In this document: positions 1-18,244 of the stretch, piece by piece | Numbering within the stretch: the first letter of the stretch is position 1 | How the letters are laid out: each line of letters starts with the position of its first letter | Source of the DNA: Minisyncoccota bacterium | GTDB lineage: Bacteria; Patescibacteriota; Minisyncoccia; Phycocordibacterales; DATDSR01 | Reading direction: 5' to 3' | DNA length: 18,959 nucleotides | Assembly (NCBI GenBank): GCA_036517855.1 | Contig: DATDSR010000026.1 | Location: 1-18,959 of the forward strand | Program-made: the position numbers and the translations under genes | Notes under the pieces: model-generated | Seen by the model: the letters and a program-made list of their open reading frames with translations, nothing else | Told to the model about the DNA's origin: nothing | Databases searched by the model: none

Positions 1-139
1 ATACAGCAAAGGCCTTGGGGATGGCGGGCGGGGTGGGCGGTACTCCGCACACAGGCGGAGACGCACCGATTTAGTAGCAGGGTTTAATCACAGCGGTGTC
101 GTCTCGAAGTAAGTTCGAGCCGACTCGTAGATACTCCAC
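1..139 (+). repeat. Copy A of a GC-rich repeat family of about 180 bp (cut by the window start)
   Basis: By manual alignment, 1-139 matches 16761-16900 at 137 of 140 positions (2 substitutions, one 1-nt indel) in the same orientation. It contains the hairpin GTCG-T-CTCGAA-gtaag-TTCGAG-C-CGAC at 98-124. Confidence 0.9.
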
Positions 140-185
140 AAAAGACACGACAACCTGCCCTGCGGCAGGTTTTGTGCTTTTGTGG
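136..185 (+). terminator. Compound hairpin with T-tract (candidate intrinsic terminator, plus strand favoured)
   Basis: The inner stem AACCTGCC-ctgc-GGCAGGTT (152-171) is followed by TTTGTGCTTTTGT. The outer stem CCACAAAAG(A)CAC (136-148) pairs with GTGCTTTTGTGG (174-185). Because the T-tract also takes part in the outer stem, the function is uncertain. Confidence 0.4.
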
Positions 186-11709: not shown

Positions 11710-11889
11710 GTGGTGTTATCTTAACATTTGCGCGAACCCATTTCGAGAGCCAAAGTTGATGAGTGGCTAAATTAAAATGGTGCGTCCCCGCCTGTGGTCG
11801 GTGAGTACACCGCCCACCCCGCACGCCATCCCCAAGGGCCTCTACATTTTTGTATTTTTCGCGCGCGACTTCGGGGTTCGCAATATGGA
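11710..11889 (-). repeat. Copy B of the repeat family, inverted relative to copies A and C
   Basis: The reverse complement aligns with 16721-16900. The inner part (11771-11889 vs 16721-16836) is roughly 85% identical by manual alignment. The outer ~65 nt are diverged but of similar length, with an equivalent hairpin (TTTG-CGCGAA-cccat-TTCGAG-agc-CAAA, 11727-11754). It begins 5 nt after the ABC exporter stop. Confidence 0.85.
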
Positions 11890-12276: not shown

Positions 12277-13305
12277 ATGTACGCAGATACGGCATTAAAA
12301 AAATATCACAAATACTTCGCACCATTCTTGACCCCGTCTCAAACTAAGAGATTGTTCACAAGGCTGGAGAGAGTTTCTTGCAACATAGCTCCAATAAATC
12401 CCGCCACAGGAAATACGCAAACGAGCGTAAGATGGAAGCTTGATAAGGCGAACCCAAACTACGCAAGTGAAAAAGAATGTCGAGAAATATTTACCGCTCT
12501 CGTTGAGGATCTGTTGGGTTTCTTGGGTGTAAAGAAATTTAAAGCTCGTGGTTATTTACAGACCTACTCGGATAAAAATATCGCGAAAGAGGACGTATCT
12601 AGTTTCTTAAATACTAGCTCTAGAATAGGTTCTCTCGAACTACCTATAGACTACAAAAGGCCACTTAGGGAAGATGGCAAGCACACAAAAGATAATATTT
12701 ACTGGTTTTCGCCTTTTACCAAGATAGTTAATTTAAGAAATTGGGTCGGAAATGAAAATATTGTTACCAAGATACAAGTAAAATCATATCTGACCGACAG
12801 AAGGCAAACAGGCGACTACCAGACAAATCGAGAGATTCGCTGGGAAACACATCCAAAGTCTCCTCAGTACGCTTCGAGAGGAGACTGCATGCTCATTGAA
12901 GCTAAACTATTAGCTCAAATATCCATTTTTGTTGGGGCACCTGACCTACCCGTGGATTTAATCGAAGTTGTAGAGGAAGTATTGGGCAGTAAATTTGTAA
13001 AAGATAGTTTCAAATGTCCCATATCCGGGAAACCAATTTTCTTTAACGAATTTTATGAAAAGGTAGCGAGCCCGGTGCATGGAAGATCAGGTTTCCAAGT
13101 CGGACATTTAAATCCGCTCGCATCTACAGGTCGTCATATTGCATCAAATACATCATGGATAACTGACCTAGGGAATCGTGTTCAAGGAGAATCTTCTCTA
13201 GAGCAAATCACAAATGATATTTTCTTCATGGCCAACTTCCACAAAGAGCGTCAGTCTCTAGATTGGAGTGAAGTTGAATCTATTGCAAAGAAAACACAGA
13301 GTTAA
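12277..13305 (+). CDS. Putative restriction endonuclease (C-terminal HNH / beta-beta-alpha-Me-like motif)
   Basis: 342 aa and low GC. It sits directly downstream of the C gene and is convergent with the methyltransferase. The C-terminal motif is FQVGHLNPLASTGRHIASNTSWITDLGNRVQG (spacing of the H...N...N type). I recognise no closer family. Confidence 0.55.
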   Translation: MYADTALKKYHKYFAPFLTPSQTKRLFTRLERVSCNIAPINPATGNTQTSVRWKLDKANPNYASEKECREIFTALVEDLLGFLGVKKFKARGYLQTYSDKNIAKEDVSSFLNTSSRIGSLELPIDYKRPLREDGKHTKDNIYWFSPFTKIVNLRNWVGNENIVTKIQVKSYLTDRRQTGDYQTNREIRWETHPKSPQYASRGDCMLIEAKLLAQISIFVGAPDLPVDLIEVVEEVLGSKFVKDSFKCPISGKPIFFNEFYEKVASPVHGRSGFQVGHLNPLASTGRHIASNTSWITDLGNRVQGESSLEQITNDIFFMANFHKERQSLDWSEVESIAKKTQS

Positions 13306-15409
13306 GTTTATTGACCATTGCAAAAGTGTGTTCTTTTGTCTTTTCCTTTAGAGTAATGATATCTTTTACTTCTTGGTCAATGTCACTAAGGGTTTGAAGA
13401 TTTCGTGGAGTCGGAATTAAGAGGTCATAAATCCTTTTGCCAAGCGAATCTATGATGTCCTGCGTCAGTTGTTTAGACTTAATTTGTCTCTGTACCCATC
13501 GAGATGAAAGAAGTCCTAGTAGGTTATAGGCCGTTAGACCTATTTCGTTAGAAAGCACTCTAATTTTATAAATATGACTCTGATAAATAATCTCAGTATC
13601 AAATTTGGTAATCATTGCAAGCGTTCCAATCAAGTATGTGCCGTCCTTAACCATAAGAATATCACCGGCTTGAATATCCTGTTTGTTTTTTAGCTTCTCG
13701 TAGATCGACCGCTCAACTCTATGCTTTGCATCATTCTTAACCTCCCAATTCGTTAAGTCAGAAGTTCTTATATAAGGTATATCTCCTGTACCATATGCCA
13801 GTTTTCCAATCTCGTCTCCCGTAGAAATCTCCAAAATATTCCTTTCGACAAGCTCCCGAATAGTAACCAAGTGTGAATCAACCGAAAGACTATTTTTATC
13901 ATTTTCTAAATCTGCGTCATAATACTTTGGAGCCAAAATATTATCATCAACACGATCTGCTAGTAGCATGTAGCCTAAATTGCTGCTCTCGGTGTAGGTT
14001 TTATTCCTGAATTTCAGATAATTACTCAAAATTCCAGGAAGGTCATCGTGGGGAATTATGTTTCCCCTAGAATCATGTCCGCACCACTTGGCCTCCGCAA
14101 AAAATATCGACCTTTCAACTGTATCACTACCATCCCTTCTTCTAACAATCATGAGATCCGTCTTTGTATGCGTGCCGCCCTTCCCTGAAATTTTAAAAAG
14201 TGACTCAGGCATGCCAATCACACACTCAACATCGGAATTATTAAGAATATATTGGACTGTACCTTTGTAATTCTTATTCGATAAAAGACTTTCTGGCACA
14301 ACAGTTGCAAGTAGACCTCCATTTTTAAGTGCTCGGATATTTCTTTCCATAAAAATTGCCTGTGGGGGCGTGTTGACGTTTAGGGTATCGGTCTTCTTAT
14401 ATGAACCATTATTACCAGACCATTTGTAGCTTACGGTGTATTGCTTGGCAGTTTCTTCGTCGATTGATTTTATCTTTGATCCAAATGGGGGGTTGGTTAT
14501 TACGAGATCGAAATATCCATCTTTTATTTTTGGCAAGTCTGGGTTACCTACCAAAAGTGAATCGCCATCATAAATATGCGCTACTTCACCGGTAAGCAAC
14601 GTTAAATGGATCTTCGCAAGTCTGGCTAGTTTTTTATCTTTTTCAATGCCAAACATATTATTCTTTACGAAGGATTGGACGTCCTTCTCTGGGTAGCGCT
14701 CCTTAAGGTACAGGTAGGTAGCCGTTAGGAAACTACAGGCACCACACGCAGTGTCTATAATTTTCCATGTGGGTTTTGGATCAACTGCTCTAACCAAAAA
14801 ATCTACTGCAACCTTCGGTGTGAAAAATTGGCCTTCTTGGCCTCTTATGTGATTACCAATGAACACTTGGTATAAAGACGCTACTACGTCTATGTTGTGT
14901 TTTTGGAATTCTCGTAGTTGACGGAGTCCTTGGGCTACGTAGTCTATCGAATGAGGATCTAGAAGTAGCTCCTCATCAGGACCATAAAAATCAGGAAACT
15001 TTGATCTGATTTTTGTAAATTCAGCTCTAAATACCTTAGAATTTTCAAATATGTCTTCAGAAATGCGTTTTTCGACAGTATCACTCAAGCAAAAGAAAAC
15101 TTTAAGAACCTCTTCGAGCAAGGCCTCATCTCGACTCATCCCCACCGCTCTTCCCGCAAGATAATTACGAATATTCCTAATGATAGCGGAAGGTTCGAGG
15201 GATAATTGTAAGTTTGCTTTTTGGTCTTTCATTTCCTGTTGAGCGGGAATCATCCCACAGTTTATGTAATTATAGTACATTTTGCTGAGTGAGGAACAGC
15301 GATTATCCACAGGGTTGACGTAATATCTAGCTAAACTACGTAAAAATATGATCGGCCTTTTAATGTCAGTATTTAAAAACAGAAAAGCCCCCACAGATGT
15401 AGAGTCCAT
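13280..15409 (-). CDS. N6-adenine DNA methyltransferase (gamma class, HsdM-like) fused to a C-terminal HsdS-type target-recognition domain
   Basis: Up to 709 aa. It has FFTPKVAVDFLV, motif I IIDTACGACSFL and motif IV DLVITNPPFG. The C-terminal ~200 aa resemble a type I S-subunit TRD (GDIPYIRTSDL...GDILMVKDGTYLIG...SHIYKIRV). The start is uncertain: ATGs at 15409, 15280, 15253 and 15232 are all possible, and the 15409 ATG sits inside a hairpin. The 3' end overlaps the R gene by 26 bp. Confidence 0.9.
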   Translation of the reverse strand: MDSTSVGAFLFLNTDIKRPIIFLRSLARYYVNPVDNRCSSLSKMYYNYINCGMIPAQQEMKDQKANLQLSLEPSAIIRNIRNYLAGRAVGMSRDEALLEEVLKVFFCLSDTVEKRISEDIFENSKVFRAEFTKIRSKFPDFYGPDEELLLDPHSIDYVAQGLRQLREFQKHNIDVVASLYQVFIGNHIRGQEGQFFTPKVAVDFLVRAVDPKPTWKIIDTACGACSFLTATYLYLKERYPEKDVQSFVKNNMFGIEKDKKLARLAKIHLTLLTGEVAHIYDGDSLLVGNPDLPKIKDGYFDLVITNPPFGSKIKSIDEETAKQYTVSYKWSGNNGSYKKTDTLNVNTPPQAIFMERNIRALKNGGLLATVVPESLLSNKNYKGTVQYILNNSDVECVIGMPESLFKISGKGGTHTKTDLMIVRRRDGSDTVERSIFFAEAKWCGHDSRGNIIPHDDLPGILSNYLKFRNKTYTESSNLGYMLLADRVDDNILAPKYYDADLENDKNSLSVDSHLVTIRELVERNILEISTGDEIGKLAYGTGDIPYIRTSDLTNWEVKNDAKHRVERSIYEKLKNKQDIQAGDILMVKDGTYLIGTLAMITKFDTEIIYQSHIYKIRVLSNEIGLTAYNLLGLLSSRWVQRQIKSKQLTQDIIDSLGKRIYDLLIPTPRNLQTLSDIDQEVKDIITLKEKTKEHTFAMVNKLNSVFSLQ

Positions 15410-15423
15410 ACGGACTTTTCTGT
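15379..15423 (-). terminator. Possible terminator of the high-GC gene
   Basis: On the minus strand: ACAGAAAAG, a 27-nt loop (with the inner hairpin AGTCC-gtat-GGACT), then CTTTTCTGT followed by TTTTAAAT. It lies 36 nt after the stop at 15459. Confidence 0.3.
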
Positions 15424-15458
15424 GAGGGCCGAAGAACTTATCGGACCTCTGGCTAAAG

Positions 15459-16232
15459 CTAGTTGACCTTCCTGACCGCCCGCCAGTCCACGAGGACGCC
15501 GAACGGGAAGCCGGCCTTGATGCTCATGCTTGGGAAGTTGGGCCCAGTATCGCCCTCGTCCTTCAAGCGCTGGACCGAGACCAGATGGAACTTGTGGCAA
15601 CTCATACCGACGACGAGCTTCCACCTACCCGGCTCCAGAATGTTCGCACCTTCGGGGTAGCAGTCGGTGACGGTCTCGGTGACCTCCACGATGCTGCCGT
15701 TGGGTGGAGCGAAGACATCGCACTCAGTGTTCCCGCAGGTTTGGACGGAGCCGAACTCTCGCTCGATGTGTTGCCTGGCCTCGTCCTTGTCCGCGGTGGC
15801 GTAGATCGGAAGACACGTCTCGGGGCCAGCTGCGCTTGGCAGACTACCACGACCCCCGGAAGTGGAGATAGCGGGCCGGCCGTCGAGGTGGAATTCGAAG
15901 TCGAAGTGGCGGAAGTATTCCTTCTCTCCACTCTGGTAGCCCCTGACCTCGAGGCTCAAACCCGGTCCACCGCGAAGCGTGATGCAGGCTTCGACACGGT
16001 TAGCGTCGCGGAAGAGCTCTCTGACCGACACGCTCTCCTCGTGACAACCGCAGGTGTACTTGCCGAAATCGCTGTAGCAATCGCTGGAAACCCTGCCGCC
16101 CATGCGGTCGGTTCCGAACATCACGAGTTCTCCGAAGAGTCTGAGAGCGGCACGATGCGCCACTGAGTACGTCCTGTTCTCGGCCAGTCGGGATCGAAGA
16201 GTCTTGTCGAGGAACAAACTGATCTTCTTCAT
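15459..16232 (-). CDS. Orphan Cys-rich cytoplasmic protein, high-GC (probable horizontal acquisition)
   Basis: 257 aa from the ATG at 16232, preceded by the SD AAAAGGAG (16241-16248). Third codon positions are strongly G/C-biased, and the local GC is about 60% against about 37% for the adjacent RM genes. It has 10 Cys (CGCH, CGNTEC and others) and no signal peptide or TM helix. I recognise no family. Confidence 0.7.
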   Translation of the reverse strand: MKKISLFLDKTLRSRLAENRTYSVAHRAALRLFGELVMFGTDRMGGRVSSDCYSDFGKYTCGCHEESVSVRELFRDANRVEACITLRGGPGLSLEVRGYQSGEKEYFRHFDFEFHLDGRPAISTSGGRGSLPSAAGPETCLPIYATADKDEARQHIEREFGSVQTCGNTECDVFAPPNGSIVEVTETVTDCYPEGANILEPGRWKLVVGMSCHKFHLVSVQRLKDEGDTGPNFPSMSIKAGFPFGVLVDWRAVRKVN

Positions 16233-16358: not shown

Positions 16359-16392
16359 GGTGCAGTGTCCAGTACAAATGGGGAATGAGTTC

Positions 16393-16825
16393 GGGGAGCC
16401 GTGCCCGCCAAGGGCGGGCACCCCCTGTGCGCGCACGGGAGGGCGGGGCAAGCACAGTTAGATAGAGCCAGCCCTTCCCACCAAGGAGGGGTTTGGGGAG
16501 GAATTGGGGGGAAGGGCTGATCCATACTTCTCCCGTTCCCCCAGTCACGCCATTCATTGGCGTGACTGAATAATAGCGCGTCTCCGCCTCACTCTCCGAA
16601 TGCGCCAGAGCAGCAAACCGGTCGGGCATACAAATAACCACAACATTTTGATATAGTAAGAGGACGGCTTGCTGTGAGGGCGCATTCGGGGAGTCTCGCA
16701 TCGCCATCACTCAAGGCCTATCCATATTGCGAACCCCGAAGTCGCGCGCGCAAAAAACAAATACAGCAAAGGCCTTGGGGGATGGCGTGCGGGGTGGGCG
16801 GTACTCCGCACACAGGCGGAGACGC
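16393..16825. other. Hairpin-dense non-coding region with nested long-range helices (candidate structured RNA or nested palindromic elements)
   Basis: Local hairpins are at 16401-16421 (9 bp), 16424-16439, 16469-16519 (11+4 bp) and 16542-16568 (11 bp). The nested helices are: H1 16578-16589/16814-16825 (12 bp); H2 16591-16606/16679-16694 (16 bp, one T.G); H2b 16611-16623/16663-16674; H3 16698-16708/16781-16790; H4 16710-16718/16771-16779. Confidence 0.4.
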
Positions 16826-16900
16826 ACCGATTTAATAGCAGGGTTTAATCACAGCGGTGTCGTCTCGAAGTAAGTTCGAGCCGACTCGTAGATACTCCAC
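16721..16900 (+). repeat. Copy C of the repeat family, directly abutting the murA start
   Basis: 16761-16900 is about 98% identical to 1-139. 16721-16900 is the inverted partner of 11710-11889. It ends 12 nt before the murA ATG. The terminal TCCAC (16896-16900) can pair with GTGGA (16909-16913), which includes the A of the start codon. Confidence 0.9.
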
Positions 16901-16912
16901 TAACAAAAGTGG

Positions 16913-18244
16913 ATGTCAACATTTATCGTTAACGGCGGGGAAAAATTAGGTGGTGTTTATGAAGTTTCTGGGGCTAAGAATGCTGGTCCCAAACTTATCA
17001 TTGCCGCCATGCTTAGCGACAAGGAGTGTTTACTGCGCAATATTCCCAGAATTTCTGACACAGAGAAAATTATGTCGGCCATCCGACAGATGGGCGGAGA
17101 GTGCTCGTGGAGCGGTGACCATGAGGTTAAAGTTAACTGCGCTAATCTCAAGGACCCGCACGTGCCCGATGTTGTGTTAACGGCGAGGCACGCAGTGCTC
17201 TTCATCGGTGCAACGCTGGCGCGATTAGGCAAACTGCGGATAGAGAAGATTGGTGGCGACAAAATCGGCAAGCGGCCAATCGATCGTCTGCTCGGAGGTC
17301 TTGAGAGTCTTGGAGCCCAGGTCATTGAGAAGAATGGCGTCCTAGAAATGAGCATGCCAGAGCGGCTAGCCTCGCGCGATTACACCTTCGCCAAGAACAC
17401 TCACACAGGCACGGAGTCGCTTATACTCGGGTCAATTTTTAATTCAGGAATAGTGACAATCAGGAATGCCGCAGAAGAACCCGAAGTAGATAACCTCATA
17501 GAGTTCACAAATGCCATGGGTGCGAAAGTTCGACGCATCGACCCAAGAGTGATTGAAATTACGGGAGTGCCAAAATTACTGGGCGCAGCAACTGGCAAAT
17601 CTATGTATGATAGACTCGAGGCCGCCACAGCGCTTGCCCTAAATGTGATGAATGGTGGGGGAATCGAGGTACGGAATGTAGATCCCAAAATGGTGAAATT
17701 TTTCACCGACGCACTCGAGCAAATAGGCGCATCAGAACCCAGTACCAAGTACCTGGTACCTGTTACCTTGAAGACTGCTGTTCATCCAGGTTTCATCACG
17801 GACCTTCAACCGATCATGAGTTTGCTCTTGGCGTACAAGGGGGGTGGCAGATCGGAAATACACGAGATGATCTACGAGCAACGTTGGAGTGCTCTACAGG
17901 AGCTCGCCAAGATGGGGGTGAAGTATGAACTCTTCCAGCCCGCGGGCTACACAGCCAACGACTTCAACTTCAACGAGCGTGAGTTCCACAAGAACGACCC
18001 ATACGGAGCATACGTTTGGGGGCCAACTGAACTAAGGGCGGCAGAAGTGGAGTCGCGAGACGTGAGAGCGGGTATCACAGTCCTAATTGCGGCACTCTTT
18101 GCCCAGGGCGAGAGCAAAATCAACGACCCAGACAATCACATAGACAGAGGCTACGAAGATATAGTCGGCAAGCTCCAGCGCCTAGGCGCTGACATCAGGA
18201 GAATTGATTCCCCACTTCGCCAAGGCTACGCGGGGCAGGCATGA
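16913..18244 (+). CDS. murA: UDP-N-acetylglucosamine 1-carboxyvinyltransferase (MurA), Asp variant at the fosfomycin-target position
   Basis: 443 aa. The N-terminus FIVNGGEKLGGVYEVSGAKNA matches the MurA start. The active-site loop is KIGGDKIGKRPID (E. coli: PGGCTIGARPVD). HIDRGYEDIVGKLQRLGADI lies at the C-terminus. Confidence 0.93.
   Translation: MSTFIVNGGEKLGGVYEVSGAKNAGPKLIIAAMLSDKECLLRNIPRISDTEKIMSAIRQMGGECSWSGDHEVKVNCANLKDPHVPDVVLTARHAVLFIGATLARLGKLRIEKIGGDKIGKRPIDRLLGGLESLGAQVIEKNGVLEMSMPERLASRDYTFAKNTHTGTESLILGSIFNSGIVTIRNAAEEPEVDNLIEFTNAMGAKVRRIDPRVIEITGVPKLLGAATGKSMYDRLEAATALALNVMNGGGIEVRNVDPKMVKFFTDALEQIGASEPSTKYLVPVTLKTAVHPGFITDLQPIMSLLLAYKGGGRSEIHEMIYEQRWSALQELAKMGVKYELFQPAGYTANDFNFNEREFHKNDPYGAYVWGPTELRAAEVESRDVRAGITVLIAALFAQGESKINDPDNHIDRGYEDIVGKLQRLGADIRRIDSPLRQGYAGQA

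Follow-up and report, generated by a model that had tools for sequence, protein, structure and literature searches.

Judged from its sequence surroundings, the GC-rich repeat found several times in the window (the whole stretch of DNA analysed here, 18,959 nucleotides) is very likely the outer part of an arm of a mobile cassette that carries mostly defence genes, would be moved by a large serine recombinase (LSR) and would be placed at the end of a tRNA-Ala gene. We observed homologous junctions, a 5-bp shift of a motif between element and target, an architecture that recurs, and turnover of cargo between conserved arms. In the following, X stands for the GC-rich repeat arm and Y for the inverted repeats that box the recombinase gene; a slash marks a junction. 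The full element would read flank / inverted X, cargo, X / Y, recombinase gene, inverted Y / inverted tRNA gene. In this arrangement the 3´ end of X (…GTTCGAG-N15-TCCAC) would be the P-type half-site of the attachment site of the recombinase, X/Y an attP-like junction, tRNA-Ala(GGC)/Y the attL and X/chromosomal flank the attR, and the recombinase would presumably cut inside TCCAC(AA).

Copies of the repeat and junctions at the recombinase locus

The window belongs to a CPR genome (G000) of 834,968 bases (0.83 Mb) in 60 contigs, the shortest of them 2,512 nt long, which is 95.7% complete. The first-pass annotation had described a family of three copies. All three (A, B and C, Table 1) were found again, and the search of the whole genome added a fourth one at G000:C8:1-141. 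The near-identity of A and C was confirmed, the differences being two substitutions and one 1-nt indel, and copy B is indeed inverted, with approximately 83-85% identity. Copies B and C reach further inward than first described: both start at TCCATATTGCG (11889 and 16721, respectively), and their inner extensions then differ. In copy B, homology to A and C covers the outer 180 nt (11710-11889), and the inner part of about 100 nt is specific for the short type (S); this inner part is present with 82-94% identity in the sister genome G001 and in nine metagenome contigs. The ending GATAC(T/A)CCAC followed by AAAA, which had been attributed to all copies, applies to A only, since B ends with GATAACACCAC/AAAA and C with GATACTCCAC/TAACAAAAG.

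Table 1. Positions of the repeat copies, their parts and the enclosed cargo in the window
Feature	Position	Strand	Description
Copy A	1-139 (+ shared AA 140-141)	+	outer 139 nt of the putative P-type attachment arm, truncated by the contig start
Copy A, parts	hairpin 98-124; GTTCGAG 113-119; core TCCAC 135-139	+	97% identity to C, 100% to C8:1-141
Copy A, flank (B´-type side)	140-185	+	shared AA, then terminator-like hairpin 152-171 and T-tract
Copy B, short-type (S) arm	11710 to ~12005	-	outer end toward the ABC exporter stop codon
Copy C, long-type (L) arm	16388-16900	+	inner hairpin-rich part 16388-16720; conserved core 16721-16850; end module 16851-16900
Copy C, end module	hairpin 16859-16885; GTTCGAG 16874-16880; core TCCAC 16896-16900	+	
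Cassette cargo	12277-16232	mixed	from Pfam, PADLOC and composition profile
Cargo gene 1	within 12277-16232	+	342-aa putative endonuclease
Cargo gene 2	within 12277-16232	-	709-aa N6-adenine methyltransferase, type II/IIG kind
Cargo gene 3	within 12277-16232	-	257-aa orphan Cys-rich protein
attR-type junction	16901-16915	+	12-nt spacer TAACAAAAGTGG, then murA ATG; homologous to the G003 spacer after tRNA-Ala(GGC)

The copy on contig C8 has a sharp 3´ end (…CTCCAC/AA) against the gene for a large serine recombinase. The outer end of copy B lies 4-5 nt past the stop codon of the ABC exporter gene, in agreement with the 5 nt given before. Copy C had been reported to run straight into the murA start codon; it does adjoin murA, but its outer end is located 12 nt ahead of the ATG. 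Copy A and the copy on C8 are identical over exactly 141 nt and divergent from there on, which is the picture of a de Bruijn graph branch at k=141. The start of the window inside the repeat is therefore an assembly effect, as had been suspected. The hairpin with T-tract reported after copy A was recovered by the terminator scan, bracketed by CCACAAAAG and CTTTTGTGG, though it is part of the flank and lies outside the repeat.

Directly downstream of the fourth copy, C8:324-1829 encodes an LSR with Resolvase, Recombinase and Zn_ribbon_recom domains. An LSR gene adjoins X also in G001 and in the loci L130 and L141; the window itself contains no LSR gene. On C8 two Y repeats of 129 nt, complementary to 100%, box the recombinase gene. 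The left Y meets X at its outer end (…GATACTCCACAA/TTTCGCAG…, the X side ending with …ACTCCACAA), and the right Y, likewise at its outer end, adjoins the 3´ end of the inverted gene for tRNA-Ala(GGC) (…GGGTCCACAA/TTTCGCAG…); beyond this tRNA gene a second murA gene and ychF are located. The counterpart of the window junction was found in G003, a genome of the same genus, in which tRNA-Ala(GGC)/TAAATAAAATGG-murA ATG is uninterrupted and aligns with C/TAACAAAAGTGG-ATG of the window from TCCAC onward. Since copy C occupies the exact place of the tRNA 3´ end in G003, the boundary between copy C and murA is an attR-type junction (element arm / target flank). On this alignment, the end of copy C appears to be the site where a tRNA-Ala(GGC) gene once preceded murA. 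The missing SD in front of murA, which had been noted at copy C, is thus native, because the same 12-nt spacer follows tRNA-Ala(GGC) in G003.

Taken side by side, the junctions have a short core in common: X…TCCACAA/Y, tRNA-Ala…TCCACAA/Y, X…TCCAC/murA spacer and, in G003, tRNA-Ala…TCCAC/same spacer. The flanks of this core swap as B/P´, P/B´ and P/P´, the pattern expected of att sites. G001 has the same plan with a tRNA-Ser gene, namely long X (inverted), cargo, short X, Y, recombinase, inverted Y and inverted tRNA-Ser. There, X ends with …TTCACCG and the tRNA with …CTCTCCG, and CAAAATG… is common to both afterwards.

A further feature of the attachment sites of serine integrases is that the motif bound by the zinc-ribbon domain is located 5 bp nearer the centre in attB than in attP (PMC3783163). 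For 18 loci we determined how far the nearest GTTC or GTCC lies from the shared core, in X and in the T-loop of the tRNA. The spacing was 23 nt for X and 18 nt for the tRNA at 16 loci, 22 and 17 nt in this genome and 21 and 15 nt in G001. In 17 of the 18 loci the motif is therefore 5 bp further from the core in X than in the tRNA, which is the spacing described for att sites (PMC3783163). This shift matches the attP/attB rule, and thus the X end behaves as a P-type and the tRNA end as a B-type half-site. In the repeat, GTTCGAG sits on the 3´ strand of the central hairpin pointed out in the first-pass annotation, and we infer that the GTTC motif is the one bound by the recombinase protein.

With these assignments the four copies would fall into two elements. 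The C8 copy would be the X/Y junction beside the recombinase and copy A is probably the attR of the same element (X / terminator), so that A and the C8 copy would be the near-identical two arms of one active-looking element whose cargo contig was presumably not binned. The simplest local order of the contigs would be atp operon, terminator / inverted X(A), unbinned cargo, X(C8) / Y, recombinase, inverted Y / inverted tRNA-Ala(GGC), murA2; under this order the terminator that flanks copy A would be the original tRNA terminator. A second, older cassette, with restriction-modification genes and devoid of a recombinase, would have copies B and C as its short and long arms, which have diverged.

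The two murA genes of G000 (window 16913-18244 and G000:C8:2382-3707) have 75% amino acid identity and are located one on each side of the island region, and sister genomes contain one murA gene or none; the duplication counts against the cassette model. A mixed bin of two strains as source of the two genes was rejected, since murA is the only duplicated gene among the eight window genes tested and the other seven are single-copy. A palindromic stretch of 57 nt (…AAAATTTTGATTCGACGGAATCAAAATT…) is found in the window at 221-277 and with 95% identity at G001:C13:1305-1361, in surrounding DNA that does not match. On the metagenome contig L129 (489-519), an arm is followed by the first 31 nt of Y only and then by unrelated genes, so that the Y part is roughly as long as a single half-site should be.

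Between the junction and the ATG of the recombinase gene there are about 250 nt that are rich in hairpins, at 135-330 of locus L027 (G000:C8) and in the same region of about 60 loci (for instance L072:5767-6000). The stem sequences vary by lineage and the pairing is kept, as in CCTCGGGGCTTCGCCCCTCGG versus CGCGCCCGCGCCAAAGGCGCGGGC, followed by a conserved GAGCCGATG…AAATTGTCGGTGTAA. This stretch may serve as a structured leader or as a series of sites bound by proteins.

Recurrence of the architecture and its cargo

As far as the sequenced loci allow to say, the cassette architecture is common in CPR bacteria. Relatives of the recombinase number at least 494 in genome assemblies, nearly all of them from Patescibacteria, with 45-84% identity across classes. 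In 63 of the 80 loci fetched, the recombinase gene is boxed by Y-type inverted repeats, mostly 85-147 nt long and mostly 95-100% identical, and loci with long enough flanks have an inverted tRNA gene after the recombinase segment, in nearly all cases that of tRNA-Ala. A profile of the X ends matched just left of Y or upstream of the recombinase in most loci, and in 13 loci a second, inverted match was located 1.5-5.5 kb further left. All three junctions are clean in a complete Moraniibacteriota chromosome: X…CACCACC/AAATTTG (Y), tRNA-Ala…GGTCCACC/AAATTTG (Y) and inverted X…CACCAC/AAAATATAG (flank). At four loci, a real tRNA or tmRNA gene in opposite orientation forms the left side of the junction; the recombinase segment therefore exists in both orientations. 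Many of the loci fetched extend no more than 100-500 nt upstream of the recombinase gene.

Queried by blastn against 57 further families of the order, the repeat had no matches outside the genus; against the 80 recombinase loci it gave nothing significant. A regular-expression search for the conserved GGGAGGGCGGGGCAAG motif yielded too few matches to be of use, and the nhmmer profile of the CPR-wide X ends had no significant match to the copies in G000, which counts against the cassette model. The link to the wider family thus rests on position, the spacing rule and intermediates from metagenomes. Such intermediates came from a metagenome scan for the invariant X core, which gave 12 true homologs (the other seven matches were chance GC-rich sequence). 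In these homologs the X core is joined to six kinds of end module, one of which (…AAAGTCGGGATTTAATTCGAAATACATTCGAACTTTGTCCAACAAACACCGC) closely resembles the CPR-wide end.

Every contig that covers an entire cassette pairs an S arm with an L arm; the arm that faces the recombinase may be of either type. Between contigs, same-type arms show 82-100% identity; the S and L arms of a single cassette show about 83%. The pair is therefore of old date, and homogenisation is not taking place in this genus. The cargo between the conserved arms differs. Across the complete cassettes it comprises type I, II and III restriction-modification, Shedu, Mrr and DUF3800. The G001 cassette carries HXXEE, Shedu SduA, an MvaI-type endonuclease, a methyltransferase and Mrr, and the metagenome cassettes contain type III restriction-modification together with a PADLOC candidate, type I, a large methyltransferase with DUF3800, and proteins without family match. 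One metagenome contig with a single arm has non-defence genes alongside.

In the window, B and C point outward and enclose a segment of lower G+C content in the composition profile. The ortholog of the ABC exporter gene in G001 has no cassette alongside. The B-C cassette is without a recombinase and its left junction is located at the stop codon of a protein gene, not at a tRNA gene. This position is not accounted for by the model of an LSR targeting tRNA genes and counts against it.

Folding of the arms and other explanations

Several results bear on whether the repeat acts through its structure. Its description as a family without a known RNA assignment was borne out, as no Rfam model matches. 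The Rfam 15 scan of the window at gathering thresholds returned three tRNAs only and nothing at the repeat, a scan of the repeat up to an E-value of 10 gave as best match an irrelevant miRNA model (20.7 bits against a threshold of 71.8), and an E-value scan of the equivalent region of the complete genome gave nothing relevant. Conservation of the 130-nt core is 81%, with long G-rich blocks that are invariant, and none of the 17 pairs predicted for the core is compensatory, a pattern that suggests sequence-specific recognition rather than folding. A 17-codon open reading frame in the core was rejected as a short peptide, since its frame is broken by a 4-nt and a 2-nt indel between the copies.

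The central hairpin ascribed to all three copies is predicted in C and A but is weak in B, where the minimum-energy fold lacks it. In this hairpin of the end module TCGAA…TTCGA is kept and the outer stems differ between the end types. Another hairpin exists in two forms, GCGG-UACU-CCGC and CGGUG-UACU-CACCG, the difference being a 2-bp stem insertion matched on both sides. The strongest folding was found for the long arm (-230 kcal/mol compared to -168 +/- 6 for shuffles, z ~ -10), equally on both strands; in an alignment of six homologs 97.7% of the cells are paired, with six compensatory pairs out of 99 as opposed to 0-2 in slid controls, and one homolog has lost a 48-nt hairpin loop and kept the stem. 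The earlier proposal of compensatory change and selection on structure is thus sustained by the compensated stem insertion, the differing outer stems and the six long-arm pairs, and does not extend to the 130-nt core, which is without covariation. Some selection on the arm hairpins is indicated, and on these data it may act on RNA or on DNA.

Two further details of the arms were noted. The hairpin loop at 16470-16535 of the window and in the arms of L047, L049, L054, L055 and L083 contains runs of G (GGGGAGGAATTGGGGGGAAGGG here), and in other lineages it contains the C-rich complement, so that the loop occurs in either orientation inside a conserved stem. The motif GCGCGCACGGGAGGGCGGGGCAAGC at 16425-16455 of the window recurs near the inner arm ends of distant CPR lineages (L058, L070, L072, L075, L085).

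A normal LSR half-site comprises about 25 bp. The arms exceed this by 130-450 nt that are conserved and fold strongly, a length which the LSR model does not explain. Possibilities for the extra sequence are binding of accessory proteins, insulation of transcription, or homology arms for the exchange of cargo. It is conceivable, if unlikely, that the long hairpin-rich arms are a functional folded module of RNA or single-stranded DNA and not passengers, and that the recombinase could swap or flip defence cassettes between conserved frames, which would amount to an integron-like cassette exchange built on an LSR in CPR bacteria. That the arms, and especially the 510-nt long arm, are a structured non-coding RNA or a folded single-stranded DNA for cassette exchange or control of the recombinase, besides being an attachment half-site, we consider improbable. 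The excess of folding over shuffles, the paired cells and compensatory pairs in the homologs, the lost loop with retained stem and the compensated 2-bp insertion speak for it; however, both strands fold equally well, as expected of DNA palindromes, the arms contain no promoter and match no Rfam family, the most conserved 130 nt show zero covariation, and the comparison comprised only six related sequences. A family of small-RNA genes, one of the identities offered in the first-pass annotation, fits poorly, since the unit has no sigma-70-type promoter (a scan of the sense strand of all copies found none) and its core no covariation.

Two more of the identities offered there concern the 180-nt unit as a whole and fare worse. 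Its several copies in a tiny genome, in varied contexts and with a sharp 3´ boundary would suit a MITE-like, non-autonomous transposon that spreads by itself, but the unit has neither terminal inverted repeats nor a target-site duplication, its copies occur as inverted pairs round cargo with distinct inner parts (S and L), its boundary coincides with the recombinase and the tRNA core, and no TnpB-type gene was found in the genome; this makes such an origin very improbable. The lack of a TnpB domain in the genome also led us to reject an IS200/IS605 or TnpB guide-RNA end. A cis-regulatory leader or terminator module for the host neighbours (murA, the ABC exporter gene, the ATP synthase operon) is hardly credible either. 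Copy C does end 12 nt ahead of murA, copy B does start just past a stop codon and a terminator does follow copy A, yet each copy, and each genome, has different neighbours, the 12-nt murA spacer is present without the repeat in G003, and the terminator belongs to the flank of A: the scan for intrinsic terminators found none inside A, B or C, its only terminator-like site being 152-171, and the hairpin of the repeat itself is not followed by a T-tract in this genus. There is little to suggest a retron or DGR repeat, since the reverse transcriptase gene of the genome (G000:C53:19688-20293, RVT_1, 64 bits) is unlinked and the differences between the copies are not adenine-specific.

Comparison with known mobile elements

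If the repeat is the arm of an LSR-moved cassette, a puzzling structured repeat would mark the cut site of a recombinase and would provide candidate attP/attB pairs for a large and diverse set of CPR serine recombinases, which could serve genome engineering. The conserved arms with cargo that differs between close relatives would represent one route of anti-phage gene turnover in ultra-small bacteria with genomes of about 0.8 Mb. Such an element would also explain why many CPR assemblies break at the recombinase locus. The literature searched describes the mechanics of serine integrases and the tycheposons, and we found no description in it of a design with three sites, in which an internal inverted attP accompanies the two junctions.

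A close resemblance exists to elements moved by LSRs, such as the integrases of the phages phiC31, Bxb1 and A118/LI, the Ccr recombinases of SCCmec and TnpX of Tn4451. They have the same set of recombinase domains, attP/attL/attR-like junctions round a short shared core, no target duplication, and, in the element arm, a zinc-ribbon-domain motif that lies 5 bp further outward than its counterpart in the target (PMC3783163). In contrast to them, the CPR element keeps a second, inverted copy of the attP region, so that the recombinase gene and the cargo each lie between long inverted repeats (~130 nt and 65-510 nt, respectively). In addition, its arms are far longer than a 40-50-bp att site, and its target is the extreme 3´ end of a tRNA gene.

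Two further systems resemble parts of the design. Invertible segments beside serine invertases (Hin, Gin, PinQ) and integron cassettes (attC) share with it, between them, a gene segment bracketed by inverted recombination sites beside a serine recombinase gene, exchangeable cargo and end modules able to fold. The CPR element, known here from its sequence only, differs from both, since the invertases belong to the small serine recombinases and use 26-bp sites together with an enhancer, and integrons use a tyrosine integrase on folded single strands.

Tycheposons of Prochlorococcus are cargo elements that target tRNA genes, mostly with tyrosine recombinases and in a minority with an LSR (bioRxiv 10.1101/2020.12.28.424599). 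They are flanked by direct partial-tRNA repeats, and the paper (bioRxiv 10.1101/2020.12.28.424599) describes no inverted attP duplicate or hairpin-rich arms. Nevertheless, both they and the CPR element are small carriers of cargo in streamlined genomes that insert at tRNA genes, leave behind repeats resembling tRNA and occur stacked in islands.
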